A stretch of 64,000 nt of DNA from NCBI RefSeq assembly GCF_036507355.1, contig NZ_AP027877.1. One strand, given 5' to 3'. The position numbers and the translations under genes are program-made. The DNA is from Escherichia coli. Lineage in GTDB: Bacteria; Pseudomonadota; Gammaproteobacteria; Enterobacterales; Enterobacteriaceae. Within the stretch, counting starts at the first letter, position 1. Every line of letters begins with the position of its first letter. A model generated the notes under the pieces. It saw only the letters and a program-made list of their open reading frames with translations, made no database searches and was not told where the DNA came from. This document shows, one piece after another, positions 5,517-24,367 of the stretch.

Positions 5517-6287
5517 ACCGTGCCTGGTTTGAAGATTACGCTTTTGCAGCAACCACTGGTGTGGATGGATGGCCCTGCCAACCTGCGTCATTTTGATCGT
5601 CAACTGGAAGGTATTACCGGGCGCGATGTGATCGTTCTACCGGAGATGTTTACCAGCGGCTTTGCCATGGAAGCGGCTGCTTCGTCGCTAGCACAAGATG
5701 ACGTAGTGAACTGGATGACAGCCAAAGCGCAGCAGTGCAATGCGCTGATTGCAGGCAGTGTTGCATTACAAACGGAGTCTGGTTCGGTTAACCGCTTTTT
5801 GCTGGTTGAGCCGGGCGGCACGGTACATTTTTATGATAAGCGTCATCTGTTCCGCATGGCAGATGAGCATCTGCATTATAAAGCGGGCAATGCGCGAGTG
5901 ATTGTGGAATGGCGCGGCTGGCGTATTTTGCCGTTGGTGTGCTACGACTTACGTTTTCCGGTGTGGTCGCGCAATCTCAACGATTATGACCTCGCCATCT
6001 ACGTTGCCAACTGGCCTGCTCCGCGCTCTCTGCACTGGCAGGCATTGCTGACGGCCCGCGCGATTGAGAATCAGGCGTATGTGGCGGGATGCAATCGCGT
6101 CGGCAGCGATGGCAACGGCTGCCATTATCGCGGTGACAGCCGGGTGATTAATCCACAGGGCGAGATTATCGCTACTGCCGACGCGCATCAGGCAACGCGC
6201 ATTGATGCGGAGCTGTCGATGGCGGTGTTAAGGGGATATCGCGATAAGTTTCCGGCATGGCGGGATGCGGATGAGTTTAGGTTGTAG
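5517..6287 (+). CDS. yafV: carbon-nitrogen hydrolase family protein (omega-amidase) YafV
   Basis: ORF 5511..6287; probable GTG start ([11 protein letters not shown]); nitrilase/CN-hydrolase-like sequence; synteny. Confidence 0.85.
6245..6277 (+). repeat. direct repeat copy 1 (native yafV 3' end), repeated at 8794..8826
   Basis: 28 of 28 identical bases (aagtttccggcatggcgggatgcggatg) plus 4 of 5 following bases are shared with 8794..8826. Confidence 0.8.
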
Positions 6288-6299
6288 TGAGTGGGTGTT

Positions 6300-6530
6300 G
6301 TGTTTAGGGCTGGGGAGAGTCGGGGAAGACTACGAAAGCCCGCTCTCCTGCGACCACTTTTATCATAGGAGTGTGGAAGTGCTTTTCCATCAATCGCGAT
6401 GACGTCTTTGTCATTTGATGAATGGCAGTCACGCATCCAGTTAATAAAGCATTCGTGAAATTATACTGAACGGATACAAGACATAACTCTAATTATGGTG
6501 CCGTGAACAGGATTACCATTTTCAAAATTA
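6300..6530 (-). mobile_element. H-repeat-associated (ISAs1-family) transposase remnant with large internal deletion
   Basis: minus-strand translation gives FENGNPVHGT and [27 protein letters not shown], matching the N-terminal third of YhhI-type H-rpt proteins, joined directly to 3'-end sequence; compare K-12 yafF pseudogene at the same position. Confidence 0.55.
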
Positions 6531-6560
6531 CGATATTATTTGCAGTAATTATGTTATTAA

Positions 6561-7073
6561 TCATTGTGATATTTCCATCTCTGTGATTAATACCGGATAA
6601 GCATTTAATTGCAGAGTTTGCACGAAATTATCGCAGATAACTGGCAATAACAATAACCCATCAGCCCGCTGCTGTAATACCTCCATTCGTTCTACTGATT
6701 CAACATTAACAACCAAACCAAGGGCATTTAGCGATTTAAGGATCTCCAGATGTTCACTCATCCAGCGCAGAGAAAAAGGATCATCACCAATTATAAAAAC
6801 AGGCCCCCAGCCGGTTAATAACTGGCGTTTCATTACGGAGCCAGGATGAAGTCGAGTACATATTACAGGAAATACCCCCTGTTGCGATGGTTCCGATGAT
6901 GTGGATAATTCAGAAATATTTTGCATTGTTAGTGAAGAATTAACATCCATTAATAATGGTGAAACAACCTCACTTTCCTTGCTAGTAATGGCTGCACTAA
7001 TCTGAAAGGAAAATAACAATATTATTACGTATAAACTCATTTTTAACATAACACATTCAATCCGTTTATTCAT
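6561..7073 (-). CDS. hypothetical secreted/membrane-anchored protein (orphan, low GC)
   Basis: 170-aa ORF; hydrophobic N-terminus MLKMSLYVIILLFSFQISA; AT-rich codon usage typical of horizontally acquired cargo; no family recognised. Confidence 0.4.
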   Translation of the reverse strand: MNKRIECVMLKMSLYVIILLFSFQISAAITSKESEVVSPLLMDVNSSLTMQNISELSTSSEPSQQGVFPVICTRLHPGSVMKRQLLTGWGPVFIIGDDPFSLRWMSEHLEILKSLNALGLVVNVESVERMEVLQQRADGLLLLPVICDNFVQTLQLNAYPVLITEMEISQ

Positions 7074-7139
7074 GTTATAGAATAATGATGCTATAAATCA
7101 TCATTAATGTTCAATTATTTAATCACACAATTTAAAAAA

Positions 7140-7571
7140 TCATTGACCAATGTGAATTGGCAATGTACCACTCAAGTTAAAATCACTGAATATTTTATCA
7201 ATTTCTCTTGCAGTTTCTATATATTTAACCTCTTTCGTACTTGCATTATAAATAGCCCAAGCCTCGGAATGGGATGTTTCACCAAACCTTACAAAAAAAC
7301 TTGATTTCATATTATTATATAAATTAACATCAGGAAAAGGATCTTCTCCAAAATTAGTAGTATTGAATAATGAAAGTTCGTATCGCTTAGAAAATTCTAT
7401 TGGTAGGATAGCTTCACTGCCATCAATAGCATTCATCCAGAGTTTGTTACCATTATATTCCAACAATAATCTCTGTTTTGCATGTGTCTTATCTCGTTCT
7501 TTAACGACAGCGAATACCTTTTTAACAACTTGCTGTGCGGATGGTCCTATTGTATTACCAAAAGCTGGCAA
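7140..7571 (-). CDS. hypothetical protein (orphan, low GC)
   Basis: 143-aa ORF between two H-rpt remnants; no family recognised. Confidence 0.35.
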   Translation of the reverse strand: MPAFGNTIGPSAQQVVKKVFAVVKERDKTHAKQRLLLEYNGNKLWMNAIDGSEAILPIEFSKRYELSLFNTTNFGEDPFPDVNLYNNMKSSFFVRFGETSHSEAWAIYNASTKEVKYIETAREIDKIFSDFNLSGTLPIHIGQ

Positions 7572-7871
7572 CCCGATTTTGCCATAAACACTCTCCTAAA
7601 TGAAATAAATATCCGTTTTATCGGCCTCGACAATATCTACCATTTATCCCTCCAAACAAGACCTGACTCCAGGACAAGAGCATAGTGTGTAGTAAACACT
7701 TCATGCTCTTGCCCTGACCATTGAAATAACAACTTTCGTTTGTTTACTGTACGCTGTCTAAATAGCTGCGTGGAATAAAGTTGCACTTTTTATCATCCCT
7801 TGCAGAGCAAGATTACGAAAGCCCGCCCCCGCAAGGACTGACGCGAGGTAGTCTCTGTCCGCAGCTGCTTT

Positions 7872-8635
7872 TCACATCTTACATCTTGCCCCTGCCATGA
7901 GTATCTTATCTTTCGTTAAAATATTAATAGCGATCTTCCGTATCCCTGAAAATAATTCTGCTGCATTTCCTCTTCTTATTTTGAAGTCATCTTTATTCAT
8001 TACCACGTCCAGATGCCAGTGCAATTTATTCTCCACTTGCCAGTGATTTCGGTTCGCTGTGGCGAACTTCTCTGCGGTTAAATCAGCAGAAATGCTATAA
8101 TATCTGACCGTCATTTCGGGATTTTTCTTTTGTTCTGCTATTATTGAGCGAAATGAGACTGCCATGCATAATTTCTTCAGCCCTTTCCATTCAAACGTAA
8201 AATCAATAAATTCATCAGAGACATGCAAACAATATGAAGACGGATTTTAATGACATAAATTGCTCCCTTGTGACGACTCTTGTCATAAGAGTGCCGGAGC
8301 GTTTTTCCATCAATTGCGATGATGTCTTTATCATCTGAAGAATGACAGTCACGCATCCAGTTAATAAAGCACTCGTAAAATTTTGCAGGACTGATACAGG
8401 ATACAACTCTGGCAATGATATCGTGAACAGGAATACCATTTTCAAAATCACCATATCACTTCAAAAAATCGAGATGTGTTTCCCCAAATCCTCTATATCT
8501 TCCCAGCCTTATGCACCAGAAATAACGGCGCAAATAGTTAACAGATAGAATATCTGGCAATTTATGTTCCACTTTCCAGGCTTGCCTGTAATCGGGGATA
8601 ATAGAAATATGTTCCATCAATTTTTTAAGTTCCAT
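7872..8635 (-). mobile_element. H-repeat-associated (ISAs1-family) transposase pseudogene (frameshifted, internally deleted)
   Basis: minus strand encodes [26 protein letters not shown] (H-rpt N-terminus, 8632 downward) and C-terminal [43 protein letters not shown] (ORF 7872..8228); about 760 bp versus about 1.1 kb for an intact copy. Confidence 0.65.
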
Positions 8636-8793
8636 TTTACCCCCCTTAATTATGCAATGAGTATTTGATCATGTATAAGCAATGAAAAACAGCTTTAGGT
8701 AATAAGGAACACCTCAATTATTGAACATAAAATGCGAATTATTTAGTACAAAAAAAGCAGTATTACGTGATTTTTCCCTGGGAGTACAGTGTG

Positions 8794-8826
8794 AAGTTTC
8801 CGGCATGGCGGGATGCGGATGGGTTT
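8794..8826 (+). repeat. direct repeat copy 2 (duplicate of yafV 3' end)
   Basis: aagtttccggcatggcgggatgcggatgggttt matches 6245..6277 with 1 mismatch; would encode ...[10 protein letters not shown], a yafV C-terminal fragment. Confidence 0.8.
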
Positions 8827-8892
8827 GAACTGGGGTGATTAGGCACTACATGTCTACATTTTCCCGGTCACCACCCCCTCAATCTTATGAAC

Positions 8893-10953
8893 TTAACCTC
8901 GGCTCACCGTTTTCGATTCCATCCAATAAATGACCCGGTTGGATGTGGGCTGATCGCCAACAACTTTGCCATCTGCAGAGATTAGCTTCAGCTCTTTATT
9001 AGCCTCATCACCGAAGTAAATCATACGGTAGCGAAAATAACCGCCCCAGGGTTCACGTCCACCCAGCGGACTTTGCATAAACCAGGCGCGGGAGTCGTGA
9101 ACCTGGTCATCATAGAGGGCCAGTAATTCAGCGCATGGCTGAGTACGCGTTCCCGTTCCCAGTGAATCAATAAAAAATTGTGGATAGAGTCCGTCTCCCA
9201 TAGCCTTAATTTGCTGATATTCTTTTGCTTCATCATCGCCATTAATCAGATACACCGGATATTTAGGAATGACATCCACAAGAATCTGAATGGCTTTCTC
9301 CATGACGCTGCCGTTAATATCGCGCGTCCATCCTTTATAATCGCTCTGAAATTCTCGGGCTGCCTCTCGCAACTGATACTGAGCATTGGTTGGGTCAAGG
9401 ATAGGAATGCCCTGATTACTTTCATCAAGTGTGCCATTCCCTTTCTGCTTGTTCGCCCGCTCTTTTTCAATATTTTCCATTTGTTCTTTACGCGCTTTAG
9501 CCTCTTTATCAAGTCCATCTTTATCCAGCTGTGGCGCCTTAATATAAAAAGGTTGCACAAGAAGGCTGTTATTCGCATAGCGACCGATACGCCAGGCGGT
9601 GATCCAGCCGATCTGATCGCTAATTGCGCTTTCAAGAACCTGGGCAAGTTGATAGGAGTGATAACCTTCCCTCGTATCAATCATTTCTTCTGTACCCTGC
9701 AAGGTGGTGTTCAGCAGCGTTTGTCGCCAGATGTTGAAGCGTTTTGTTAATGAATTAGCAATCGTAAATTCCTTTACACTAGAAGGACTCATAATTCGCA
9801 GAGGCGACACACCTTTTATTAATGGAGTAACAAATTTAGAATAAACAGCAAGTGGTGCTCCTGAATCAAATGCAGCAAGATACATATCATGCAGTGCTAT
9901 CTGAGAAAGAATTTCGCCTGAGTCACCACAGGACTTCCCCTGATCGCGAACGGGATAGCCACCACCGACATCAGAGTGCATCCCCGGATAGATAATTTCC
10001 TCTGCATTTAAAGGATAATTTCCGTCTGGACGACGGATTGAATCCAGCGGAAAGCACAGCCGCTGCTCATGCGCGGCAACGAAGTGGCGGCAGCATTTAA
10101 TCAGGCCGGGAAACTGCCTCTCATCAGGGAGTTGCTGAGTACTATCGGCCCATCCCATATGACCGGCAGCGCCCGGTAAAACATGCGCCGCCCCCACAGA
10201 AGCTACGGTATCCAGCAGCCCCAAAAACTCAATACTGACAGCTAACCCGGCCAGCATCACCTGTTGCTCCTGCGGGCAAGCTAACTGAGTCAACCAGTTA
10301 ACAAAAGTTCGTGCTTCCGCTGCGCCACGGGAAAATCCGTAGATAAACAGCTTTACGTTTAGCAGGCGCGGACTGGCTTGCTCTAACAGTCCCTGTAATT
10401 TTTCCAGGTAGGGGTTAATCACATTGCGACGATTCACTTCACCAGTCATAGGCCAGGGAGCGCGCATAAGAGGAATGTGCTCTTTTGCCACATTATCATC
10501 CAGTCGCTTATGGGAAGGGTCAATGGAATAGCTCAGGGCATCCACGAGGCGTAATAATGCCCAATTAATTCGATCTTCACCACCAGTAGCGAACTCCAGC
10601 CCGCTGTTGCTGTAATCCATTTCACCTATCTTGGGAAATGGTGTGCCTACACCCGGTATATAGTAGTTAAAATATCCCTGTTCTTCTGCGTTCTGATAGG
10701 TCGTATGAAACAGTTTGGCAATATTGGTTGGGTGTCCAGGAGTGTCATTATATTCATTATTATTTGTACCATCAAAAAACAGACTAATATGCAGACTTTG
10801 ATTACACGTAAAGCCAATTCTAAATCCAGCCTGTTTACTACAGTTGGTTTTGTGCTCTTCTGTTTTATTGATTTGTTTTAGGTAGTTCGCGTTTACCTGC
10901 GCTTCAGATAATATTAATCGCCCATCTTCAGGGAACACCGGGGGGCATAACAC
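8893..10953 (-). CDS. T6SS phospholipase effector, Tle-type (DUF2235-like alpha/beta hydrolase)
   Basis: 686-aa ORF; N-terminal LHISLFFDGTNNN motif and GxSxG lipase motif (IYGFSRGAAEA) characteristic of DUF2235/Tle1-like effectors; sits after a vgrG remnant and adaptor-like gene. Confidence 0.7.
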   Translation of the reverse strand: MLCPPVFPEDGRLILSEAQVNANYLKQINKTEEHKTNCSKQAGFRIGFTCNQSLHISLFFDGTNNNEYNDTPGHPTNIAKLFHTTYQNAEEQGYFNYYIPGVGTPFPKIGEMDYSNSGLEFATGGEDRINWALLRLVDALSYSIDPSHKRLDDNVAKEHIPLMRAPWPMTGEVNRRNVINPYLEKLQGLLEQASPRLLNVKLFIYGFSRGAAEARTFVNWLTQLACPQEQQVMLAGLAVSIEFLGLLDTVASVGAAHVLPGAAGHMGWADSTQQLPDERQFPGLIKCCRHFVAAHEQRLCFPLDSIRRPDGNYPLNAEEIIYPGMHSDVGGGYPVRDQGKSCGDSGEILSQIALHDMYLAAFDSGAPLAVYSKFVTPLIKGVSPLRIMSPSSVKEFTIANSLTKRFNIWRQTLLNTTLQGTEEMIDTREGYHSYQLAQVLESAISDQIGWITAWRIGRYANNSLLVQPFYIKAPQLDKDGLDKEAKARKEQMENIEKERANKQKGNGTLDESNQGIPILDPTNAQYQLREAAREFQSDYKGWTRDINGSVMEKAIQILVDVIPKYPVYLINGDDEAKEYQQIKAMGDGLYPQFFIDSLGTGTRTQPCAELLALYDDQVHDSRAWFMQSPLGGREPWGGYFRYRMIYFGDEANKELKLISADGKVVGDQPTSNRVIYWMESKTVSRG

Positions 10954-11298
10954 GGAAAAGCCAGACCACTTATTTTGCTGGACATGTTGCTGGTTCTTTT
11001 ACTTTGAGAGATTTTAATTGATGGGTATTGTTTCTACGACAATAAAGTTTTGACAAAGAAGCAAATAAAATGCATATCTTTCGATTGTCACACATTGGAA
11101 TATCGACAGAGCATTGATGATATTACGCAAAATATATTGCAGCCAAGTGAACTGACATTACGATCGAACACAAATGCAACATGATGGATACTACCATTAC
11201 ATGTCGAGCTTGATTTTCCGTTTATTTCACGATTATCTCTTGATATTAACAGCTACGGACTTTTAAACAGATAAATCTCCCCGTACATCACCACAATA

Positions 11299-12069
11299 TT
11301 ATCCTTCGAAGTCCCGCAAAGCTCCGAAATATTTCGCGTCATTGGCTCTGAAAGCAATATCAAGACAGTGGGCAAAATAGCTTTCCTGACTGAGTTCACT
11401 GACTGCTTTCTCCTTCATCAGGACTTCAGCGTCGCAGATACAGCCCATCAATCCCACCTGTACATCATCCACCCGATTCATCTCCGGGTTGTCAGTAAGC
11501 CTGCGTTCTGGTGAAAAACTTCCTGATTTCCAGTTAATCTCACCATCACGGTCTAACCAGCTCCAGAACAACGCAATATCAGTAAATGTCGCCTGCTGCT
11601 CGTTAGTCAAAACATGTGTGAACAGTAAAGGGAACACCCGATTATCATAGTAACGCAGCAATCCGGTCTGTTCTTCCCACTGAACCTGTGACAATACCTG
11701 AAGATGCCGCCCCAGCAGGTCGAATGTAAGAGGGGATATCAACAAAGTAAGACGCGGCGTATCAGCAAATGACGCCATCAGTTGTGCCAGAAATTTGCGA
11801 TGGCTACTGAGCGCAAAGTACAGGCGTAACACTACAGGGGAATACTCCATCGTCTCAGCTTCAGGCGTTCCTTCAAACAGGGCATACCAGTGAATGGCTG
11901 GCGACAGATGAAGCATATCATTTTGCAAAGGTTGGTCGGTTCCAGCCTGGTCAACAAGCACATCTATGTAATCCAAACCAGCGGCAGAACAGAATGATTC
12001 AGCTTGCTTCAGCCAGATAATATATTTGTCTTGATCGGTAGCGTGTGGCGATACTGTTATCATTGTCAT
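11299..12069 (-). CDS. putative T6SS effector adaptor/chaperone (DUF4123-like, assigned by position)
   Basis: 256-aa ORF starting 6 nt after the vgrG-remnant stop (GGGAGA spacer acts as RBS) and preceding the Tle gene; the vgrG-DUF4123-lipase order is the canonical arrangement; domain not verified. Confidence 0.45.
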   Translation of the reverse strand: MTMITVSPHATDQDKYIIWLKQAESFCSAAGLDYIDVLVDQAGTDQPLQNDMLHLSPAIHWYALFEGTPEAETMEYSPVVLRLYFALSSHRKFLAQLMASFADTPRLTLLISPLTFDLLGRHLQVLSQVQWEEQTGLLRYYDNRVFPLLFTHVLTNEQQATFTDIALFWSWLDRDGEINWKSGSFSPERRLTDNPEMNRVDDVQVGLMGCICDAEVLMKEKAVSELSQESYFAHCLDIAFRANDAKYFGALRDFEG

Positions 12070-12075
12070 TCTCCC

Positions 12076-12470
12076 TTATCCACGAGGCGCAAAAACGGCG
12101 GCGGCTTCTTGCGCCCTTTTCAGGCACTCCTTACACACCGATTTTTCTGGCGCTTCCTCACCCTCATCGTTGTTATCATTCTGATCGGACGATGCATTAC
12201 TATCATTTTGCTCAGCCGCTAAACTTTTATCATCTGCCAGCGCTTTCAGAACCGCCGGTTGCAGCGTCGGCACCGGCGTTCCCGGACTACCGCCGCTATT
12301 GAGATTGATTTTCGGCCCGACGATGTCCACGCTCCCTGAATGGATGACCACAAACGAGCCGCCCACCTTCAGGCTTATCCGGCTGCTGCTCTCCAGCACC
12401 ACATCGCCCTCCACCTTTAACCACGCCACCGCAGTCAATGGCATCACCGGTTCTGGCGGTAGGTTTATCG
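12076..12470 (-). pseudogene. vgrG 3' remnant (second copy, DUF2345-like C-terminal region only)
   Basis: translation VEGDVVLESSSRISLKVGGSFVVIHSGSVDIVGPKINLNSGGSPGTPV is near-identical to the C-terminal region of the vgrG at 15531..17237; no upstream gp27/gp5 part. Confidence 0.75.
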
Positions 12471-12652
12471 TCGATAAAGGCGAAAGAGGTGTTTCCGGCT
12501 CTTAAGAAATATTTACGCACATGCACCAGCATTACAGAAAATAAAACCTGCGATACATTTTAATCAATAAGGTTGCTTTACCAAGCTTCCATCGATATTG
12601 ATGGAAAATTCATTAGACCTAATATGAACAGAATGTTGCTCATCATCTTTAT

Positions 12653-13339
12653 CTAATATTTGATTAACAAAAAAAACGTATTTTTATCAAATTCATAATT
12701 ATCACATCCCTCTCCACTAAATGATATAGCTCTAAAATCATATTCATTACATGAGTATCTTTTCATCAAAATAGAGAGGAATGTTTCATTAATTGATTTT
12801 AATACAAACCATTTTCTCCTAACAAGTTTGTAGTTTAATGTTTTTATATGATAATTATTTAAACTGGGGAGAAATGAATGCATATCATTCAATTTTACAT
12901 CAAAATATATTTTTTTACCTGCCGTAATTTCCACCCATCGGCTCAAATTCAAATCAAGCTCAAAGGGACAAAAGCCTCCTAGATAGTCTAAGCTAATATT
13001 TCCTGATGTAATCAAGAATTCGTCATCACACAAAGCATCAAATACATCTCCATTTCCTTTTTGGAAGTTCTTTGGATAATATATTCTGGGGAGAAAATAC
13101 GATTTAGTACTACTGTTATAAAAAGTTATAGTGGCTAAAATATTTTCAGCATGTGGCTTAACCACCAATTTAACAACAACATCATTTGTTAATTCATTAC
13201 TTATATTTTCCTCTGGCGCTAAATTATGGCTAAGATAAATAATTGGTTTCCCATTGTCACTTCTTCGTTCAAAACCGAATCTGTATTTTTTTACAAAAAG
13301 ATTCTCATTATCTATTGCAATTGCAATAGATAATGGCAA
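12653..13339 (-). CDS. hypothetical protein, candidate immunity protein for the upstream HExxH protein
   Basis: 228-aa low-GC ORF immediately downstream of the vgrG-coupled gene; start uncertain (the ORF-track start corresponds to a TTG codon); no family recognised. Confidence 0.35.
   Translation of the reverse strand: MPLSIAIAIDNENLFVKKYRFGFERRSDNGKPIIYLSHNLAPEENISNELTNDVVVKLVVKPHAENILATITFYNSSTKSYFLPRIYYPKNFQKGNGDVFDALCDDEFLITSGNISLDYLGGFCPFELDLNLSRWVEITAGKKIYFDVKLNDMHSFLPSLNNYHIKTLNYKLVRRKWFVLKSINETFLSILMKRYSCNEYDFRAISFSGEGCDNYEFDKNTFFLLIKY
13305..13336. repeat. 32-bp perfect palindrome
   Basis: ccattatctattgcaattgcaatagataatgg is its own reverse complement; overlaps the first codons of the 12653..13339 ORF. 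Confidence 0.85.
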
Positions 13340-13512
13340 AAAACAAAGAAAAAAACCATCAGTACAACATAATTTAGATTATAGAAAGCCAACCTCTTCA
13401 TCTTATTTCCCCGTCAACTCATCAAAACATTTTTCTATCTCTTTTATTTTATCCTCTACTTTTTTTGCTAACATATTCTCATCTTGAGCTTCAATATCTT
13501 CATTATTTAATT

Positions 13513-14205
13513 TTATATAAAATATCTTTCAACATTATATGCATTCTCAAATAACTGATCTTTACGCAATGTAACCAGATCATTAGCCACTGAAACATGT
13601 TTCTCATAGCTAACTTCATCCTTATTACTTGTTGCGAACTTATTAATACCCGTATAATCCTGAGTCCACATACCACCTTTTTGATTGTCACCCCAATACC
13701 AAAATATATGGGACATTTCATGGCAAAGTGTACTTACATGAGAGTCTCTACCTGTAACCGACTGTTTTATACCATGTCTGTATTCAAAATGCGCTCCGAT
13801 ATTTACAATGTAAGGAGGATCAAGATGTGGACTAATAAAAGCAGCAAATTCATTGCAGTTCGTATAATCTTTATAGCTTTCGATCGTCAAACCATTTGCA
13901 ATCGTCATTATTCGTCTGATGCCATCCATTATGAATAGTCTCGCTTGCATTCGTTTCCCAGTATCTTCCCCAACCTTTCTGATTTTTATAATGTCCTCGC
14001 CTTTAAGGCCAAAAACTTTAATAAAATCTCGTTGTTGCTCCCCCTCCCATGACATAATATCATCTGCTCTTTTCAATAAAACCATTTTCTGTGCTTTACA
14101 AGCCTTACTCATCATTATTTTAAATTTATTTGTAATTTTTTGCGGTACTACACATACTTGCGACTCGGGTTGTGAAGTCCCACTAGTATTATTATTCCCT
14201 GCCAT
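13513..14205 (-). CDS. putative T6SS cargo effector with HExxH motif (Zn-metallopeptidase-like candidate)
   Basis: 231 aa from MAGNNNTSGT (ORF-track start further upstream is IS-derived read-through); RBS GGAGGGG; start codon overlaps the reconstructed vgrG stop (ATGGCAGGGAATAA); HEMSH motif near the C-terminus; low GC. Confidence 0.45.
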   Translation of the reverse strand: MAGNNNTSGTSQPESQVCVVPQKITNKFKIMMSKACKAQKMVLLKRADDIMSWEGEQQRDFIKVFGLKGEDIIKIRKVGEDTGKRMQARLFIMDGIRRIMTIANGLTIESYKDYTNCNEFAAFISPHLDPPYIVNIGAHFEYRHGIKQSVTGRDSHVSTLCHEMSHIFWYWGDNQKGGMWTQDYTGINKFATSNKDEVSYEKHVSVANDLVTLRKDQLFENAYNVERYFI

Positions 14206-14349
14206 AATGCCCCTCCGGCTCAATATAAAAAGCATCCGAAAATAACAATTGGACTTTAATTTCCTGTGCTGTATCTGTATAAAAGTGAGGTAGCCTGAGT
14301 TTAACGGACACTCCTTCCTGAAATAGAATGGCATCAGAAGGAGCTAATA

Positions 14350-14652
14350 ATGAGCAGAAAAACCCAACGTTACTCTAAAGAGTTCAAAGCCGAAGCTGTC
14401 AGAACGGTTCTTGAAAATCAACTTTCGATCAGTGAAGGCGCTTCCCGATTATCTCTTCCTGAAGGCACTTTAGGACAATGGGTTACCGCCGCCAGAAAAG
14501 GGCTCGGTACTCCTGGTTCCCGCACGGTGGCTGAACTGGAATCTGAAATTCTGCAACTGCGTAAGGCGTTAAATGAAGCTCGCCTTGAGCGAGATATATT
14601 AAAAAAAGCAACAGCGTATTTTGCACAGGAGTCGCTGAAAAATACGCGTTAA
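14350..14652 (+). CDS. IS3-family transposase OrfA (HTH)
   Basis: 100-aa ORF MSRKTQRYSKEFKAEAVRTV... with leucine-zipper-like C-terminus. Confidence 0.85.
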   Translation: MSRKTQRYSKEFKAEAVRTVLENQLSISEGASRLSLPEGTLGQWVTAARKGLGTPGSRTVAELESEILQLRKALNEARLERDILKKATAYFAQESLKNTR

Positions 14653-14687
14653 TCGAACAATGGCGACAACAATTTCCCATTGAAGCG

Positions 14688-15506
14688 ATGTGTCAGGTAT
14701 TTGGTGTATCCAGGAGCGGTTATTACAACTGGGTACAGCATGAACCCTCAGACAGAAAACAAAGTGATGAGCGGCTAAAACTGGAGATTAAGGTGGCACA
14801 TATCCGCACTCGCGAAACATATGGAACCCGGCGGCTCCAGACGGAGCTGGCAGAGAATGGCATCATCGTTGGTCGTGACCGACTGGCACGTCTTCGTAAG
14901 GAGCTAAGGCTACGCTGTAAGCAGAAACGCAAGTTCAGAGCGACTACGAACTCGAACCACAATCTGCCAGTTGCGCCAAATCTGCTGAACCAGACGTTCG
15001 CTCCTACAGCACCAAATCAGGTCTGGGTGGCGGACCTGACGTATGTTGCCACACAGGAGGGATGGTTGTACCTCGCTGGCATCAAAGATGTTTATACGTG
15101 CGAAATTGTCGGCTACGCCATGGGAGAGCGCATGACAAAAGAGCTGACAGGTAAAGCCCTGTTTATGGCGCTCAGGAGCCAGCGCCCACCTGCCGGGCTA
15201 ATCCACCACTCTGATCGAGGTTCACAGTACTGCGCATACGATTACCGGGTCATACAGGAGCAGTTTGGTCTGAAAACATCAATGTCGCGTAAAGGTAACT
15301 GTTACGACAACGCTCCGATGGAAAGCTTCTGGGGAACGCTGAAAAATGAGAGCCTGAGCCACTATCGTTTTAATAACCGGGATGAAGCCATCTCAGTAAT
15401 ACGGGAATACATTGAGATTTTCTACAATCGTCAGCGTCGTCACTCTCGTCTGGGGAATATCTCCCCGGCAGCCTTCAGGGAAAAATATCATCAGATGGCT
15501 GCTTAA
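14688..15506 (+). CDS. IS3-family transposase OrfB (DDE integrase core; probably made as an OrfAB frameshift fusion)
   Basis: 272-aa ORF with DLTYV...HHSDRGSQY...SRKGNCYDNAPMESFW DDE signature. Confidence 0.85.
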   Translation: MCQVFGVSRSGYYNWVQHEPSDRKQSDERLKLEIKVAHIRTRETYGTRRLQTELAENGIIVGRDRLARLRKELRLRCKQKRKFRATTNSNHNLPVAPNLLNQTFAPTAPNQVWVADLTYVATQEGWLYLAGIKDVYTCEIVGYAMGERMTKELTGKALFMALRSQRPPAGLIHHSDRGSQYCAYDYRVIQEQFGLKTSMSRKGNCYDNAPMESFWGTLKNESLSHYRFNNRDEAISVIREYIEIFYNRQRRHSRLGNISPAAFREKYHQMAA

Positions 15507-15530
15507 AAAAAGAATAAATGGTAGTGTCCG

Positions 15531-17237
15531 CTATTGCCAGTACACCTCAAATATTTCTGTATATCCCTCTCTGTCTGTTTCACCACGCGTCTGTGTGCCA
15601 TCCTCAAAAAAGGCAATATACTGCGTCTCTGAATACGGTATCCCGTCATCGTCCGTAAAATGGAACTGGAGGGTATATTTTTCAGGATCATCTTCATCGT
15701 CACCGCCATCACCTCCTCCGTCACTCCCTGCGGGATTGCCACTATCCTCTCCGGAGTCATCACTGCCATCATCACTGCTCTCATCCTCCGGAGCCTCCAG
15801 CACCGCCGGCTGCATCGTCCCCACCGGTGTCCCCGCACTGCCCCCACCGTTCAGGTTTATCTTCGGCCCGGCAATATCCACTCCGCCCGGCTGAATGACG
15901 ATAAACGAGCCACCCACCTTCAGGCTTATCCGGCTGCTGCTCTCCAGCACGATATCCCCGTCCACTTTTATCCCCAGCGCGCCACTCACCTTCTCCGCCA
16001 GGTCCCCCTTCACCACCAGGCTGTGTTTCCCCTCCACCAGACTGATATGGTTCCCCGTCGTCTTATGCTCCTGCTTCCCTTCCACCGTCACTTTACGGTC
16101 GTTTCTGACGTACAGACCGTCATCGTGACTCACGCTCACCGTCCGGTCATTCGTCACCTTCAGAGTCTGGTCATTACGTACCGTGATACGCCGGTCGTTC
16201 GCCACCGTGATACTCTGGTCGTGGCCCCCCTCTTTTTTTGTACCGACCTGAACCGTCTGACCCTTCACCACCGTTATCTTCTGGTCGTTACCGATGGTTT
16301 CCGTATGGTCATGTTTTACATCCGTTGTCCGGTCGTTGAGCACCTCCGTATCCATGTTCTTCTGCGCATGGATATACACCTGCTCATTACTGGTGGCGTC
16401 TTCAAACCGCAGCTCGTTAAATCCGCTTCCTTTATAGGTTTTTGACCGTATCGTCATCTGCGTCTTCGTTCCCGGCAGGTCGCCCGGGGAGCGGTTGTCC
16501 TCATGGTACGTCCGCCCCATGATTATCGGCTGGTCCGGGTCTCCGTTCAGAAAATCAACAATCACCTCCTGGCCCACCCGCGGTATCGCCAGATTACCGA
16601 ACCCCGGCCCCGCCCACGCCTGCGATACCCGCACCCAGCATGAACTCGCCTCCGTCATCCCGTGATAACGGTCCCAGTGGAACTTCACCCGTACCCGGCC
16701 ATGTTCATCGCAGAAGATTTCCTCTCCCGCAGGCCCGGTGACAATGGCACTCTGCGGCCCGTCCACCTTCGGTTTGCTTTGCAGCCGTGGACGCCACGTC
16801 CGGTCCGCCGGTATCACCTCTAACTGATTTCCCAGCGTGGTTCCTCTCCCTTGGCTGCCGTGCAGCGCCTGCGGCTGGCTTCCTGACAGTATGCTCTGTA
16901 CCACCTGCCATTCACGGTTCAGCATCTTCTGCGGATGCCCCGTCAGCGTAAACCGCGTTCCCGGCCACAGCCTCGGCGAATTACTCTGCCCTGTGGCCTT
17001 TTCCGCATCACTGCGCAGGCTCTCCATCTGGTACAGCGTGAAATCCTTGCCGTGCTGCTCATCCTTGAACCTTCCCGGATAATCAAATATTTCATACTGC
17101 GCCAGCTGTCCGTTCAGGTTCTCACCCTGCTGCTCATACATCCCCGGCCAGTCCGGCACCTTAAACGTGTAATCCTGGCTCTGCACCGACGACGGGCGGA
17201 CATGCGCCTCATACGCTACCGCCCGGGTTTCCGGCAT
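15531..17237 (-). pseudogene. vgrG: vgrG (T6SS spike) lacking the N-terminal ~220 aa and interrupted 33 codons before its stop by IS600-like copy 1
   Basis: 568-aa ORF with gp5-like OB-fold motif (GPAGEEIFCDEHGRVRVKFHWDRY) only ~165 aa from its start, repeated VxxNDR beta-helix segments, DUF2345-like region, acidic Gly/Asp linker and a short C-terminal domain; the last residues EVYWQ are encoded by the IS terminus. Confidence 0.8.
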
Positions 17238-17294
17238 CCGCCATCTCCCTCATGAAAGCGTAACTCCTTACTGACACTCATTTTTTACACGTAC

Positions 17295-17328
17295 AAAAAC
17301 AACATCCTGCACGAAGGCAGGATGTTGT
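17295..17328 (-). terminator. rho-independent terminator downstream of hcp
   Basis: hairpin caacatcctgc-acgaag-gcaggatgttg followed on the minus strand by a T-rich tract. Confidence 0.55.
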
Positions 17329-17338
17329 TGACTCAGAT

Positions 17339-17857
17339 TTATGCTTCCAGCGGTGCACGCCAGTCATCGGCACCAGAAGTACCGGATTTGATGTGCTCCC
17401 ACTCAACCTTACGGTATGCCAGTGATACTGCGAGCAATTGCGTAAACTCACGCTGTGCAGGGTCCTGGCAGTGCGGCATGTGCAGGTTCATGTCCACAAT
17501 CGTCGCGTCAGTAAGACGTGTGGTGAAGTAGTGCTCCTGCTTGCCTTCAACTGAAGTACGCCACCAGTGCAGCTCCACTTTCGGCAGCATTTCACCGGAG
17601 GCCAGCGCGTTGTACAGCAGCGGAACGGCTTTGTTCAGCGCCACGGTGAAAATGAACGGTTTGTGCGCGCGCTGCCCGGAAGGTTGACCAGACTGTGGAT
17701 CGGTTGGAACAGTAACGTTATGCAGAAACTCCTGCACCAGCATTTCATCTTCGTGTCCCTGCACGTAGATATTGCCGACAGAATCTGCGGTGAAAGCACC
17801 GGCAGTGATGTTCCCCTGGGTCTGACCTGTAATTGAAATGTAACATGGGGTTGGCAT
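17339..17857 (-). CDS. hcp: Hcp (T6SS inner tube protein, TssD)
   Basis: 172-aa ORF MPTPCYISITGQTQGNITAGAFTADSVGNIYVQGHEDE..., typical Hcp1-family sequence and size. Confidence 0.9.
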   Translation of the reverse strand: MPTPCYISITGQTQGNITAGAFTADSVGNIYVQGHEDEMLVQEFLHNVTVPTDPQSGQPSGQRAHKPFIFTVALNKAVPLLYNALASGEMLPKVELHWWRTSVEGKQEHYFTTRLTDATIVDMNLHMPHCQDPAQREFTQLLAVSLAYRKVEWEHIKSGTSGADDWRAPLEA

Positions 17858-18559
17858 TTATGAACTCCTTGTGAAATTATCAACTGCTGTTTTACGAACA
17901 ACCCGTCGTTAATCCCCGACGGGTTAGAGTGTGATGCGGCTCACATCAGGAACCACACCCTTTTCTTTATTCGAGTTACAGGCACACGTAATTAGCACCT
18001 ACTGAAAAACTCTTTTATGGTGTTTAAATATATTTTTAGTCAATTTCAGAACACGGTCACATAAGCTAAAAATATATCAACTTCAACAGCAGAATTATCC
18101 ATAACGTATCTTCCCCCCCATAAAAATCCACAGCCGCGTCAAAAACAAATTATTACGACACTTACTCCGCCATCGTTCCAGCACGCAATTAAGATATTCC
18201 TTAAAGGAATTCCTTATGATGTATTGCCAGCAATTAATTAATTGATAAAACCATACATAAAACTTATTAATCAATTTAATAAATGCATATAAATCAATAT
18301 ATTATTGTATTTGATTGACCGTAAAATCATATTCATCAAGTCTATAAATACCAAAATCTATTTCACTATAATATATTAGCAAGGAAGAATGCATCTCTTT
18401 CTAAAATATAAATAGTTCTTTTAATATTTTATTTCATGAGTAGAATACTGATCACAACAGAAGGAAGGTTACATTATCTAACTGCCACTGAAACGGTATC
18501 TTCGGTATTTTTATGCAGTACGAAAATGCTGTGCTCATGGTCTGAACGGGAACATTTTT
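17858..18559. promoter_or_regulatory. AT-rich divergent intergenic region between hcp and the tssB stub (probable T6SS promoter region)
   Basis: about 700 bp of very AT-rich non-coding sequence between divergently oriented hcp and tssB starts. Confidence 0.35.
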
Positions 18560-18718
18560 ATGAGCAAAATGAACAACAATGGCGGCAGTGTCGCGCCGAA
18601 AGAAAGAATCAGCGTTCGGTATACACCAAAAGTTGATGGGGTGGCTGCTGATATCGAATTGCCGCTGAATTTATTGATCACCGGCAATCTGAAAGGGAAA
18701 CCAGATAACACGCCGTGA
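18560..18718 (+). pseudogene. tssB: tssB (T6SS sheath small subunit) 5' stub, 52 codons, truncated by an IS3-family element
   Basis: MSKMNNNGGSVAPKERISVRYTPKVDGVAADIELPLNLLITGNLKGKPDNTP matches the conserved TssB/VipA N-terminus; the stop codon TGA is the first three bases of the IS inverted repeat. Confidence 0.65.
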
Positions 18719-18772
18719 ATCGCCACGGGTTTAACAGACACCTCAGAGTCATTTAAGATGGCTTAAAGAGAG

Positions 18773-19057
18773 GTGCCCATGAGCGGTAAGCGTTATCCCG
18801 AAGAGTTTAAAATTGAAGCAGTCAAACAGGTTGTTGATCGCGGTTATTCTGTTGCCAGCGTTGCAACACGTCTCGATATCACCACCCACAGCCTTTACGC
18901 CTGGATAAAGAAGTACGGTCCGGATTCTTCCGCTAATAAAGAACAGTCAGATGCTCAGGCCGAGATCCGCCGTCTCCAGAAAGAGCTGAAGCGGGTTACC
19001 GACGAACGGGACATATTAAAAAAAGCCGCGGCGTACTTCGCAAAGCTGTCCGACTGA
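18773..19057 (+). CDS. IS3-family transposase OrfA
   Basis: 94-aa ORF MPMSGKRYPEEFKIEAVKQVVDRGYSVASVATRL... (HTH plus leucine zipper). Confidence 0.85.
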   Translation: MPMSGKRYPEEFKIEAVKQVVDRGYSVASVATRLDITTHSLYAWIKKYGPDSSANKEQSDAQAEIRRLQKELKRVTDERDILKKAAAYFAKLSD

Positions 19058-19113
19058 GGTACGCCTTTATCCGTGACAACACCTGTTGCTGGCCTGTTCG
19101 CCTGCTCTGTCGG

Positions 19114-19926
19114 GTGCTGGATGTTCATCCCAGTGGTTTTTACGCCTGGCTTCAGCAGCCGCATTCACAACGCCATCAGGCAGACCTGAGGCTGACAGGG
19201 CAGATTAAACAGTTCTGGCTGGAATCGGGATGCGTCTATGGTTATCGCAAAATCCATCTGGATCTGCGGGACAGCGGGCAACAGTGCGGAGTGAACAGAG
19301 TCTGGCGACTGATGAAACGTGTCGGGATAAAGGCTCAGGTCGGATACCGGAGCCCGCGGGCACGTAAAGGCGAGGCCAGTATCGTGTCGCCCAACAGGCT
19401 CCAGCGACAGTTCAATCCGGATGCTCCGGATAAGCGTTGGGTAACGGACATAACCTACATCAGGACCCACGAAGGCTGGCTGTATCTTGCCGTGGTTGTT
19501 GATCTGTTCTCACGCAAAATTATCGGCTGGTCCATGCAATCCCGGATGACAAAGGACATTGTCCTGAACGCACTGCTGATGGCTGTATGGCGCCGTAATC
19601 CCCAAAAACAGGTGCTGGTTCATTCGGATCAGGGCAGTCAGTACACAAGCCATGAGTGGCAGTCGTTCCTGAAATCACACGGCCTGGATGGCAGCATGAG
19701 CCGTCGCGGTAACTGCCATGATAATGCGGTTGCAGAAAGCTTTTTCCAGTTGTTGAAACGCGAACGGATAAAGAAAAAGATCTACGGAACGCGGGAAGAA
19801 GCCCGCAGCGATATTTTTGATTACATCGAAATGTTTTATAACAGTAAGCGTCGGCATGGTTCCAGCGATCAGATGTCACCGACAGAATATGAAAACCAGT
19901 ATTATCAACGGCTCGGAAGTGTCTAG
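19114..19926 (+). CDS. IS3-family transposase OrfB (DDE)
   Basis: 270-aa ORF with DITYIRTHEGWLYLAVVVDLFSRK...HSDQGSQYTS...SRRGNCHDNAVAESFF DDE signature. Confidence 0.85.
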   Translation: MLDVHPSGFYAWLQQPHSQRHQADLRLTGQIKQFWLESGCVYGYRKIHLDLRDSGQQCGVNRVWRLMKRVGIKAQVGYRSPRARKGEASIVSPNRLQRQFNPDAPDKRWVTDITYIRTHEGWLYLAVVVDLFSRKIIGWSMQSRMTKDIVLNALLMAVWRRNPQKQVLVHSDQGSQYTSHEWQSFLKSHGLDGSMSRRGNCHDNAVAESFFQLLKRERIKKKIYGTREEARSDIFDYIEMFYNSKRRHGSSDQMSPTEYENQYYQRLGSV

Positions 19927-20198
19927 ATTATCCGTGGCGATTCAGTTGTCAAGCAGATAGAAGCCATCTAGGTCAGGGGGAATGACTAGGAATTACTCCC
20001 CAAGGGTAGCGTACGTCTACACACATCAAATTACCTCCCGGACAGGGACATAGTAGAAATATTGTGTATTGCAATTATGGATACTGTCATCGTCTAGGTA
20101 GTTCGCCAGCTTTATAGTGTTTTACTGAATTTGGCCACCTGAGCAGAGGTGATATGGGAGAGTGATTTTCATACGCTCTCGTATGGTTTCCGGCCTGA

Positions 20199-20426
20199 AT
20201 GCAGTGTTCATCACGCGATCCGCACGGTGAAATTACAGCTCACAGACTGTGGGGAAACCCGGGGCGCTGGGTGATTGAAGACGACCTGTCCAGTTACTTC
20301 GACACCGTACACCATCGACTGCTGATGAAAGCCGTACGCCGCAGGATCAGTGACGCACGTTTTATGGCCCTCCTGTGGAAAACCATCAAGGCGGGCACAT
20401 CGAGGTCGGTCTCTTTCGGGCGGTAA
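20199..20426 (+). pseudogene. reverse transcriptase fragment (group II intron/retron-type RT, as in K-12 CP4-6 ykfC)
   Basis: translation contains IEDDLSSYFDTVHHRLLMKAVRRRISDARFMALLWKTIKAG, the RT fingers/palm motif context; only about 75 codons. Confidence 0.55.
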
Positions 20427-20439
20427 GTGACGCCGCGCC

Positions 20440-20684
20440 AGCTGACGTTGCCACGAATATTCGCCAATACGCTGCCAGACTTCGGTATGAAAGCGCAGAA
20501 TCAATGACCGGTAATCGGCCATGCTTTCGCGGTACGGCAGCGTCAACGTAAAGCAGAACACCACGAGTCGTGGGTAATGGTCAACGGCCTGTTGCAGAAA
20601 GGCTCGTGTATTTGTCGTGTCAGTCGAATTGCCGGAGACGATGGAGGGAGAATAAGGATTCATAACGGCGCTCTCAATGAACAC
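20440..20684 (-). pseudogene. prophage-remnant protein fragment (possibly inovirus Gp2-like)
   Basis: N-terminal part of minus-strand ORF 20211..20684 (MNPYSPSIVSGNSTDTTNTRAFLQQAVDHYPRL...); the rest of that ORF overlaps the RT fragment on the other strand and is probably read-through. Confidence 0.3.
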
Positions 20685-20888
20685 TGGTGTGATGGACAGG
20701 AGTGTGATGTTGCAGGTGTGCTGCTCATCATCGATCCCATATCATTACGTTCGCTCACTAAGACGGAGTGCCTTTCGTCATTTAACCTGTCACAATCCAA
20801 ATAATTTCAGACAGATATTATCTCCGTGAATCCCCCGCCTCCTTAACCGGAGCGCGGGGATTTTTCTTTTTCACGTTGAGAACTCTGT

Positions 20889-21773
20889 ATGACTAAACCT
20901 CACGGCCTTCAGGCCCTTGAACAACCGCTGGCGTCGCTTCCCGATGCGCTTCGCCAGCTTATTCTTGAACGTATTCAGAATCTCACCCACTATGAGCCGG
21001 TGATTGGTATCATGGGCAAAAGCGGTGCCGGTAAGTCTTCGCTCTGTAACGAACTCTTCCGGGGTGAGGTCTCCCCCGTCAGTGATGTGAACGCCTGTAC
21101 CCGTGAAGTGCTGCGCTTCCGGCTGCGCAGCGGGCGTCACAGTCTGGTGATTGTTGATTTACCGGGTGTGGGAGAAAACGGGCAACGGGACCATGAATAC
21201 CGTGCCCTGTACCGGCGTATGCTGCCGGAACTGGACCTGGTTCTGTGGGTCATTAAGTCCGATGACCGGGCGCTGTCGGTGGACGAGCAGTTCTGGCGCG
21301 GTGTGATGCAGCCTTACCAGCAGCAGGTGGTGTTCGTGATTAACCAGGCCGACAAAATAGAACCCAGCCATGAATGGGATACCCGTTCTGGTACTCCCTC
21401 AGCACAGCAACAGAAAAATCTTCAGGAAAAGCAGGTTGCCATTACCACGATGTTTAAGCCACATCACCCGGTCTGCGTGGTATCCGCATGTACCGGATGG
21501 GGCGTGGAGGATATGGTAGCAACCATGATGCGCTGTCTGCCGGACCGCGCCACCAGCCCAGTAGCGACACAGTTGCACGGGAGGCTCTGCACGGAGCCGG
21601 TAAAGTCGCAGGCCCGTGACGGCTTCGGTGAGGCGGTGGGGCGGTGGGGCGGGTGTTCGATACGGCAGAATCATCGTTATTCCTGCCTGCGCCGCTGAAG
21701 ACGGTGATACGTACCGTGCGTGATGCTGTGGTGTCTGTAGCCCGCGCGGTCTGGGACTGGATCTTCTTCTGAA
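20889..21773 (+). pseudogene. YeeP/YkfA/YfjP-like prophage GTPase with a probable 3' frameshift
   Basis: Walker A GKSGAGKSS, G3 DLPG and NQADK G4 motifs; the ORF ends at 21698 but a plausible conserved C-terminus (...TVIRTVRDAVVSVARAVWDWIFF) continues in another frame to about 21773. Confidence 0.65.
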
Positions 21774-22032
21774 TGAGTAAAAGGTCATCAGGACTGTAGT
21801 GAATGACTCTGTTTATTCACCGCCTGGTAGATGATTATTTCCAGGCAGACATAACCTGTCCTGACCAGCAAAAGATACCACCAGTCATAAGCGCGTCACC
21901 ACTGCCGACGTTGCATCCACACAGTCTTCTTGCACCAGGCGTTTCGCTACGTATGACGGACACAACCTGTCAGTCCCATCCTTTACAGTAATACCTTCTT
22001 TATTAATCAATTACCCAACACGGAGATAATAC

Positions 22033-23368: not shown

Positions 23369-23403
23369 CCCGCTGAAAACAACCATAACAGGGAGTTTTT
23401 AAC

Positions 23404-23856
23404 ATGAATATATTTACTACGCGTCTGACGACCTCTCTGGTGGTCATCGGCACTCTGCTGCTCTCCGGCTGCGACAGCAAGGAAGATGCAGGCGTGAAGA
23501 CGATTGCCCGATTTAAGGACCTGACTCCGCCGCCCTTCAGCGACGTGGTGGCGCATAAATCCGATATCGAGCAGGAATGGGTAAAAAAGGATGCCTTCGG
23601 CACACCGCTATACACGGTAATGAAAACTCGCCAGTCGCCGGAAGGCTGTGAGTCCGGCAGTTATTACTACATTGCTGATATGCAGCAGAAAACGGTGCAG
23701 CCGCTGATAGCCGCCCTGTGTCTCGCGGACAATATTACTCTGAGCTTCCGGATCGAGACCGACAGCTACACGGGTGAGAAATCGGTGGTGTATTCGCACG
23801 ATGGCAAGGAAATGGGGAAACTCTTGCTGCCGGATAACCAGGAGAACCATCCATGA
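23404..23856 (+). CDS. hypothetical lipoprotein (YfjS-like position)
   Basis: 150-aa ORF with lipobox LLLSGC. Confidence 0.5.
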   Translation: MNIFTTRLTTSLVVIGTLLLSGCDSKEDAGVKTIARFKDLTPPPFSDVVAHKSDIEQEWVKKDAFGTPLYTVMKTRQSPEGCESGSYYYIADMQQKTVQPLIAALCLADNITLSFRIETDSYTGEKSVVYSHDGKEMGKLLLPDNQENHP

Positions 23857-24305: not shown

Positions 24306-24367
24306 ACTCCCCGCCTCAGGGAGAAGCTTCCCGTATTCATTTAACACATTAAAAATAAAGGAAAAGA

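Follow-up and report, generated by a model that had tools for sequence, protein, structure and literature searches.

Comparison with Described Systems

The Ssp6/Sip6 and Ssp4/Sip4 pairs of Serratia consist of a small protein without a signal peptide, encoded at the edge of or away from a type VI secretion system (T6SS) cluster and sometimes beside an orphan hcp gene, together with an overlapping downstream gene for a small multi-transmembrane (multi-TM) protein. The PFL_4695/DUF2859 proteins, encoded immediately before traD/virD4, belong to integrative conjugative elements (ICEs) of the MPF_G type (ICEHin1056, PAPI-1, and ICEclc-type elements) and carry a signal peptide, a linker, and a set of invariant residues. 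Here, we analyzed a 64,000-nucleotide stretch of Escherichia coli DNA (contig NZ_AP027877.1; hereafter the window), in which two adjacent genes, ORF1 and ORF2, form a cassette that lies next to yafV, where the aspV-yafV T6SS-1 island ends. Tentatively, and as a reading that falls a little short of being probable, we propose that ORF2 is an orphan T6SS toxin and ORF1 its co-opted periplasmic partner, and that the pair is decaying in this strain. The two genes are as follows:

6561-7073, minus strand: ORF1, an intact gene for a DUF2859/TIGR03765 (PFL_4695-family) protein of 170 aa.
7140-7643, minus strand: ORF2, a 167-codon gene of a T6SS-linked uncharacterized family; a pseudogene in the window.

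The ORF2 family resembles Ssp6 and Ssp4 in lacking a signal peptide and in usually being followed by an overlapping gene for a small multi-TM protein. However, descriptions of Ssp6 and Ssp4 portray them as pore formers of largely alpha-helical structure, whereas the model of ORF2 is mostly beta; Ssp4 exceeds 300 aa, compared with about 190 aa in the ORF2 family; and Sip6 has 67 aa and two TM helices, compared with 141-155 aa and about four TM helices in the partners of the ORF2 family. In E. coli, moreover, the partner of ORF2 is a soluble periplasmic protein, unlike the membrane immunity proteins Sip6 and Sip4. On these published descriptions, we judged it unlikely that ORF2 is Ssp6 or Ssp4.

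ORF1 has the signal peptide, the linker, and the invariant residues of the ICE proteins; unlike their genes, it is solitary in the chromosome, without SLT, TIGR03759, or TraD genes nearby, and has a fixed place beside ORF2 and ISAs1, where a T6SS island ends. The TraF type of the F plasmid comprises periplasmic conjugation proteins with a thioredoxin fold and no redox activity; its likeness to the ORF1 family lies only in the fold and the conjugation-module context, and the type IV secretion system (T4SS) types differ (MPF_F vs. MPF_G).

The initial annotation had compared the layout of the region with that of Rhs/VgrG loci, where displaced toxin tips and immunity genes accumulate. The comparison held as far as the cassette lies in the insertion sequence (IS)-littered tail of a VgrG/T6SS island, and the remnants that flank it are fragments of ISAs1, the family of the H-repeats of E. 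coli Rhs loci. Unlike at Rhs loci, these elements bracket a two-gene cassette, and neither an Rhs core nor a tip was found. In K-12, the position of the cassette is occupied by the unrelated genes yafT, ykfM, and yafU, homology to which had been named in advance as evidence against an effector or immunity role; tblastn of both proteins against K-12 positions 235000-248000 returned a best E value of 0.25 over 9 residues.

ORF1 Is a DUF2859 Protein outside a Conjugation Module

ORF1 had been called an orphan, and this did not stand: it scored 120.7 bits against TIGR03765 (cutoff 59.75) with all 105 model positions covered, matched Pfam DUF2859 (PF11072) at 2.2e-28, and aligned end to end with homologues from ICEs and plasmids. 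PGAP and RefSeq name it a PFL_4695-family ICE protein; thus, the earlier statement that neither protein resembles anything recognizable failed for ORF1. The signal-peptide-like N-terminus reported for the 170-aa frame was also found (MLKMSLYVIILLFSFQISA|A), and the true start is probably the ATG at 7049 (M9), which gives a classical signal peptide. In architecture, ORF1 follows the full-length layout of the family, with a signal peptide, a disordered linker, and a C-terminal domain, and in an alignment of 38 sequences including ORF1 (A3) it kept all family-invariant residues (P69, G78, G88, F93, G96, D98, S101, W104, A117, G119, L120, P144, Y159, P160, and Q170). In the AlphaFold model, the linker was disordered, and the C-terminal alpha/beta domain, which has a thioredoxin-like fold, was predicted with confidence (pLDDT >90). 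Because the position of the CXXC motif is D98-x-x-S101 across the DUF2859 family, the fold of ORF1 is probably not redox-active.

The closest relatives of ORF1 outside E. coli (46-57% identity) are found in ICEs of Citrobacter, Erwinia, and metagenomes. In these elements and in ICEHin1056, the homologue is invariably flanked by an SLT-like gene and by traD, which encodes the coupling protein, and in all four ICE or plasmid relatives with a full MPF_G module the DUF2859 gene is directly upstream of traD. ORF1 departs from this context: T4SS genes were not found in the window or at the corresponding loci of E. coli JX21CE8, E. coli S88, and L003 (the locus of a second allele of the pair, described below). 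Capture of ORF1 from the conjugation module of an MPF_G ICE forms part of the joint reading proposed above, and we advance it with the same caution.

These observations also bear on whether ORF1 could retain an ICE-related job, hindering or helping the periplasmic assembly of incoming MPF_G conjugation machines, with ORF2 as a bystander. The protein is full-length and motif-complete, has a signal peptide, and is under purifying selection, and its ICE homologues are fixed components beside traD. On the other hand, ORF1 is always co-inherited with ORF2, in both alleles, and ICE genes were not found nearby. Nor did we find in the literature any published function for DUF2859, TIGR03765, PFL_4695, or the accessions of the ORFs, members within ICEs included. 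We regard a retained ICE function as very improbable.

ORF2 Belongs to a Family of Small Proteins and Is Disrupted in the Window

The frame at 7140..7571 had been listed as a complete ORF. It does exist as a frame, but it is merely the tail of a 167-codon gene that starts at an ATG at 7643, downstream of a strong Shine-Dalgarno sequence (GGAGGG), and is broken by an in-frame amber codon (TAG, 7596-7598) at codon 16. Compared with the intact allele, ORF2 of the window differs only in Q16*, G122E, and P126S, without any synonymous change; across the family, the glycine at position 122 hardly varies. None of the 546 complete E. coli genomes that carry this allele matched the window identically over the 85 nt surrounding the amber codon, and the nonsense allele is therefore either private to this strain or a sequencing error. 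A TTG-initiated product of 143 aa would miss the first beta strand and the invariant E17.

The intact protein gave no match in Pfam, NCBIfam, PADLOC, PHROGs, or the PDB, and as read from the sequence it has no hydrophobic N-terminus or signal peptide. Its AlphaFold2 model is mostly beta (mean pLDDT 83). A word-indexed search returned only E. coli proteins, and an exhaustive phmmer search recovered 29 relatives among 1.84 billion representatives, most of them about 190 aa long and 30-40% identical to ORF2. By name or fold match, relatives occur in Serratia, Morganella, Pantoea, Rahnella, and Citrobacter, and further ones in Cedecea, Yersinia, Enterobacter, Pseudomonas, and Burkholderia; all are annotated as hypothetical. 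Alignment A1 of the family showed E17, G99, D101, P102, L108, and Y109 to be invariant. The family is patchily distributed, and Salmonella, Pantoea, and Morganella often carry truncated copies.

Two other readings were rejected. Identity of ORF2 with the SLT-like gene that precedes DUF2859 in ICEs was contradicted by a BLASTP E value of 5.5 and an hhalign probability of 0.05%, and an anti-phage defense role or phage origin by the absence of PADLOC and PHROGs matches. Displaced Rhs or effector fragments, also suggested in the initial annotation, were not borne out: no Rhs or toxin domain was detected, ORF2 is a whole gene rather than a fragment, and its upstream flank is an ISAs1 remnant, not an Rhs core.

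Salmonella also carries a related gene. In Salmonella Senftenberg (L015, 5959-6630), an N-terminally truncated ORF2-like gene (114-119 aa), labeled "cytoplasmic protein," lies between sseK1 and rpoC. Hundreds of genomes conserve this gene, which probably represents a decayed family member.

Neighborhoods of the ORF2 Family

We addressed the genomic context of the family with individually fetched loci, comprising eight contexts outside E. coli and the two E. coli alleles. In two of the eight non-E. coli contexts, the ORF2-like gene was directly adjacent to a T6SS gene. At locus L004 it immediately follows an orphan hcp, and at locus L011 it immediately follows tssB-tssC within a T6SS cluster, where it is the first in a series of small ORFs. 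Several of these ORFs have signal-peptide-like N-termini, and the series resembles an effector-immunity region. That two of eight contexts place the gene beside hcp or tssC points to T6SS delivery, by association only.

The second recurrent neighbor is a multi-TM protein (141-155 aa, about four TM helices), whose gene adjoins the ORF2-like gene in seven non-E. coli loci, downstream in six and convergent in one. On contigs from Serratia, Morganella, Pantoea, and others, the two genes form a compact operon in which the four-TM gene overlaps the ORF2-like gene downstream. The membrane partners are weakly but detectably similar to each other and diverge fast. In Serratia and Pantoea, the operon has a third gene, for a DUF805 membrane protein, with overlapping stops and starts, and in Pantoea this three-gene operon lies at a fixed chromosomal site. 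The three-gene operons were located as follows:

L005, 10001-11380: ORF2-like, four-TM, and DUF805 genes.
L010, 5443-6796: the same three genes.
L020-L024, 10001-11330: the same three genes.

Taken together, the signal-less soluble protein, the fast-evolving membrane partner, the patchy distribution, and the truncated copies make up a toxin-immunity type of pattern. A different account of these loci is that the family is not toxic at all, that ORF2-like proteins are cytoplasmic or peripheral partners of the four-TM and DUF805 proteins with a housekeeping-like or stress role, and that the T6SS adjacency is coincidental and ORF1 unrelated. The operon that lies at a fixed site in Pantoea, and is found in Serratia, has no adjacent T6SS genes, and neither a toxin domain nor a known fold was found for ORF2. 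However, a position directly after hcp or tssC in two of eight contexts is far above the expectation for a random gene, and island-like patchiness, fast-diverging partners, and frequent truncation in Salmonella, Pantoea, and Morganella are typical of toxin-immunity modules. We consider a non-toxin role unlikely.

Further features of L011 were observed. Its T6SS cluster (6001-11100) was judged to be Pseudomonas-like. Between tssC and tagJ, the cluster contains a long variable region, which starts with the ORF2-like gene and its four-TM partner and encodes several signal-peptide proteins; a 126-aa protein of this region carries a Cys-containing motif (GHCAKYV) that resembles amidase effectors by eye. 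From the position after tssC in L011, ORF2 was also considered as a candidate Hcp, and this was rejected because Hcp was absent among the fold matches.

Distribution and Selection of the Pair

Of 5426 complete E. coli genomes, 558 carry the pair, in one of two divergent alleles. Allele 1, to which the window belongs, is carried by 546 of these genomes and allele 2 by 12 further ones; the cassette is always single-copy, chromosomal, and beside yafV. The alleles share the same architecture with 68% protein identity in ORF2 and 75% in ORF1. Between them, synonymous divergence (dS) was 0.41-0.58 and the ratio of nonsynonymous to synonymous divergence (dN/dS) was 0.34 for ORF1 and 0.31 for ORF2, which indicates that both genes were kept by selection while diverging together. 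Both frames were annotated as intact in every sampled allele-1 genome and in the listed full-length allele-2 genome. With homologues, intact copies in hundreds of genomes, and these dN/dS values, ORF1 and ORF2 are real genes rather than chance ORFs.

The gene content next to the cassette varies. The cassette follows Tle1 and Tli1 in JX21CE8 and Cpe1/Cpi1 in S88, and it is thus independent of the neighboring effector. At the allele-2 locus (L003), ORF2' and ORF1' are followed by an ISAs1 copy and then yafV; this ISAs1 lacks the deletions seen in the copies of the window, although its transposase gene is annotated as two ORFs, of 92 and 285 aa.

Could the pair nevertheless be debris without any joint function, with ORF1 a fragment of an ICE and ORF2 left over from an effector module whose four-TM gene was lost, both trapped by ISAs1 activity beside yafV and persisting through linkage to the island? 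Remnants of IS elements on both sides and a duplicated yafV 3' end indicate rearrangement, all close relatives of ORF1 are in conjugation modules, ORF2 lacks the usual membrane partner and about 30 conserved residues, and in the window it is a pseudogene within a visibly decaying island. Against this stand the intact frames in the sampled genomes of both alleles, the preservation of both genes and their order across alleles at a dS of 0.4-0.6 with dN/dS of 0.31 and 0.34, the retention of every family-invariant residue in ORF1, and an amber codon that is private to the window. We consider debris an unlikely explanation, although one with several observations in its favor.

Three different genes lie upstream of the allele-2 pair (L003, 6931-9576). 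The first product, of 327 aa, may form repeated beta strands; another, of 411 aa, resembles TIGR02270 (87 bits, under the cutoff); and the third is a cytoplasmic thioredoxin whose active site reads WCNNC. A katN-type Mn-catalase cluster is nearby. The possibility that this thioredoxin gene is the TIGR03759 gene of ICEs was rejected.

A Tentative Model for the Cassette

The region is the tail cassette of the T6SS-1 (aspV-yafV) island, with ORF2 followed by ORF1 and ISAs1 downstream, and ORF2 is a shortened member of a family of soluble, beta-rich, signal-less proteins of about 190 aa, whose usual partner is the four-helix membrane protein of 141-155 aa. In the model that we tentatively favor, the proteins of this family would serve as T6SS (Hcp-type) cargo toxins and act at the cell envelope or inner membrane. 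In E. coli, ORF1, a presumably periplasmic protein with a redox-inactive thioredoxin fold, would take the position of this membrane partner and neutralize ORF2 in the periplasm, or at least work together with it. In the window, the island is decaying: the core genes are gone, a vgrG is cut by an IS3-family element, tli1 is deleted, and ORF2 carries an amber codon. ORF1 remains intact, as would be expected of an orphan immunity gene, and is identical to the JX21CE8 protein. The state of the window looks like relaxed selection on the weapon genes with survival of the periplasmic partner.

The general features of effector-immunity pairs were found in part. With respect to linkage, the cassette ends the T6SS-1 island and relatives adjoin hcp and tssBC. 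With respect to targeting, ORF2 appears to lack a Sec signal, ORF1 to have a signal peptide, and the partners of the relatives to be multi-TM, as judged from their sequences. No recognized toxin domain or T6SS marker (MIX, FIX, PAAR, or a DUF4123/DUF2169-dependent architecture) was detected. The initial suggestion that the ORFs belong to effector or immunity modules survives in altered form: the ORF2 family is T6SS-linked and has the layout of a toxin with a membrane partner, but the pair represents neither Tle1 immunity nor Rhs tips.

Several observations weigh against the toxin-and-partner model. T6SS genes are not adjacent at most of the ORF2-family loci examined (those of Serratia, Morganella, Pantoea, and one metagenome contig); given also the DUF805 gene in third position in Serratia and Pantoea, a non-toxin, membrane-associated function is possible. 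The usual partner is the four-TM protein rather than DUF2859, and a pair of DUF2859 and ORF2-like genes was not found outside E. coli. The main weakness is that co-inheritance is the sole tie of ORF1 to ORF2. About 30 residues conserved in the relatives are absent from E. coli ORF2 (alignment A1), a dN/dS of 0.3 reflects only moderate constraint, and no T6SS gene occurs in the 10 kb that precede the allele-2 locus. In addition, promoter and terminator scans performed no better than chance, with counts equal to the shuffled expectation.

A bolder version, which we consider unlikely, is that the ORF2 family constitutes a new class of small T6SS cargo toxins with an unseen fold, whose four-TM immunity protein was replaced in E. 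coli by an ICE-derived, redox-dead thioredoxin-fold protein. If true, a gene of the conjugation machinery would have been turned into a T6SS immunity protein, which would give the first functional handle on DUF2859. More generally, if ORF2 is a toxin, the effector family would extend to Serratia, Morganella, Pantoea, Citrobacter, Yersinia, Pseudomonas, and Burkholderia, and the pairing with DUF2859 would show that immunity functions can be recruited from unrelated mobile elements.

Orphan effector-immunity-like cassettes in IS-rich ends of T6SS islands and the RefSeq family name of ORF1 were known already. What is modestly new is a fairly widespread, unstudied small-protein family with T6SS links and no known fold, and the conserved and unusual association of this family with a thioredoxin-fold protein of ICE origin. 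In about 10% of complete E. coli genomes, among them extraintestinal pathogenic and avian pathogenic strains such as S88, the T6SS-1 island ends in this pair, and neither gene appears to have been studied so far.

Cassette Layout and Flanking ISAs1 Remnants

Read in the direction of its genes, the cassette has the order H-rpt B, ORF2, ORF1, and H-rpt A, and lies beside yafV at the island end. The features around the two genes are as follows:

6246-6295, plus strand: 3' terminus of the functional yafV, which forms copy 1 of a direct repeat of 50 nt (repeat search).
About 6326-6541 (~216 bp), minus strand: H-rpt A, an ISAs1 remnant (repeat search, blastn, and a partial ISAs1 pseudogene in PGAP).
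7670-7716, minus strand: inverted repeat forming a near-perfect hairpin with 21-nt arms and a 5-nt loop (repeat search and sequence).
7803-8754, minus strand: H-rpt B, an ISAs1 copy with both ends present (blastn, NF033564, and PGAP).
8794-8843, plus strand: diverged duplicate of the yafV 3' end (50 nt, 82% identity; repeat search, and blastn to the L003 and K-12 yafV ends).

The low GC content and the bracketing by decayed H-repeat (ISAs1-family) remnants, both reported from the start, were confirmed. GC content was 0.376 for ORF1, 0.339 for ORF2, and 0.353 for the cassette (6542-7802), compared with 0.506 for the whole window and 0.551 for yafV. The two remnants lie in the same orientation on either side of the ORF pair, and neither is a complete ISAs1 element with an intact transposase. 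H-rpt A consists of the 18-nt 3' end of the element (6326-6343) joined to a 200-nt internal fragment (6342-6541); by blastn, the 200-nt piece is 80% identical to H-rpt B and 81% identical to the L003 ISAs1, and it matches the ISAs1 transposase hidden Markov model NF033564 weakly (E 0.0013). H-rpt B is damaged by a 312-bp internal deletion, frameshifts, and stop codons, is 89-91% identical to the L003 ISAs1 at the DNA level in two blocks (blastn), and matches NF033564 at 9.3e-28 and 4.4e-07. In near-identical genomes, PGAP labels both remnants as ISAs1 pseudogenes, with H-rpt B frameshifted and containing an internal stop. K-12 yafF, located at the same yafV junction as H-rpt A, shows an 89% match to the 3' part of H-rpt B.

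The duplicate of the yafV 3' end sits beyond H-rpt B, so that the cassette lies between two yafV 3' ends. This duplicate marks an older junction of the island with yafV, and because of it the cassette appears to have come with its own, foreign yafV end by recombination. The hairpin at 7670-7716, located between H-rpt B and the ribosome-binding site of ORF2, could be a terminator (for IS read-through) or an operator or other regulatory site.

Loss of the Lipase Immunity Gene

The window encodes an intact Tle1-type phospholipase effector without an immunity gene beside it, and the initial annotation had suggested that one of the two ORFs supplies the missing lipase immunity. The relevant features are as follows:

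8893-10953, minus strand: tle1, intact and encoding a phospholipase effector of the Tle1 type (annotated by PGAP at a locus with 98.8% identity).
10969-10996 (interval 10954-11298), minus strand: deletion junction of 28 bp (megablast of the JX21CE8 locus against the window, overlapping blocks).
11299-12069: tla1 chaperone gene (NF053803 match, 221.5 bits).

The corresponding locus of JX21CE8 has tli1, a DUF3304 gene, between tle1 and tla1, and carries this ORF1/ORF2 cassette as well. Compared with this locus, the window lacks exactly 511 bp between 28-bp direct repeats, which removes tli1, and tblastn with Tli1 on the window recovered only a C-terminal remnant (10973-11119, E 0.1). An immunity role of the cassette toward Tle1 would fit the gap beside tle1 and the predicted periplasmic location of ORF1. 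However, the cognate immunity protein is a DUF3304 lipoprotein that coexists with the cassette in JX21CE8, its absence from the window is explained by a simple deletion, the cassette of S88 follows Cpe1/Cpi1 where Tle1 is absent, and neither ORF1 nor ORF2 matched DUF3304 in profile searches. The suggestion is thus effectively refuted and can be given hardly any weight. For the window, the picture is that of a decaying relic island in which ORF2 is a pseudogene and the lipase immunity was deleted rather than hidden, and the strain would be Tle1-sensitive if any T6SS still delivered Tle1.

The aspV-yafV Island in the Window

The interval between yafV and aspV is the site of the T6SS-1 island in many E. 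coli strains. In S88 the island is complete, with tssB through tssH, hcp, vgrG, and Cpe1/Cpi1. In the window it is delimited and interrupted by the following features:

Start of the window: dpaA (yafK)-yafJ-gmhA-fadE-ivy-yafV block.
14285-15548 and 19114-19926: IS3-family insertions, one of which truncates the vgrG at 15531-17237.
29863-29939: tRNA-Asp gene (aspV).

Between them, the island contains tle1, tla1, a vgrG fragment, a predicted M35 peptidase gene, a second vgrG (15531-17237) interrupted by the IS3-family insertion, and hcp next to it; additional IS3 copies and a CP4-like integrative element lie beyond hcp. The T6SS core genes (tssB through tssM) were not found between yafV and aspV, and the T6SS-1 island of the window is therefore a relic. 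Of positions 12000-30000, not more than 59% was matched at a single place in any complete genome of the collection.

Downstream of the vgrG fragment, two very AT-rich genes (12653-14334, GC 0.28-0.33) encode a 273-aa protein, annotated as an M35 peptidase in a near-identical genome, and a 228-aa hypothetical protein; they may be another effector-immunity pair. At the other end of the island, a remnant of the CP4-like integrative element (19900-29860) abuts aspV and, by matches in other genomes, contains GTPase-family, DUF4942, DUF932, and WYL-domain genes.

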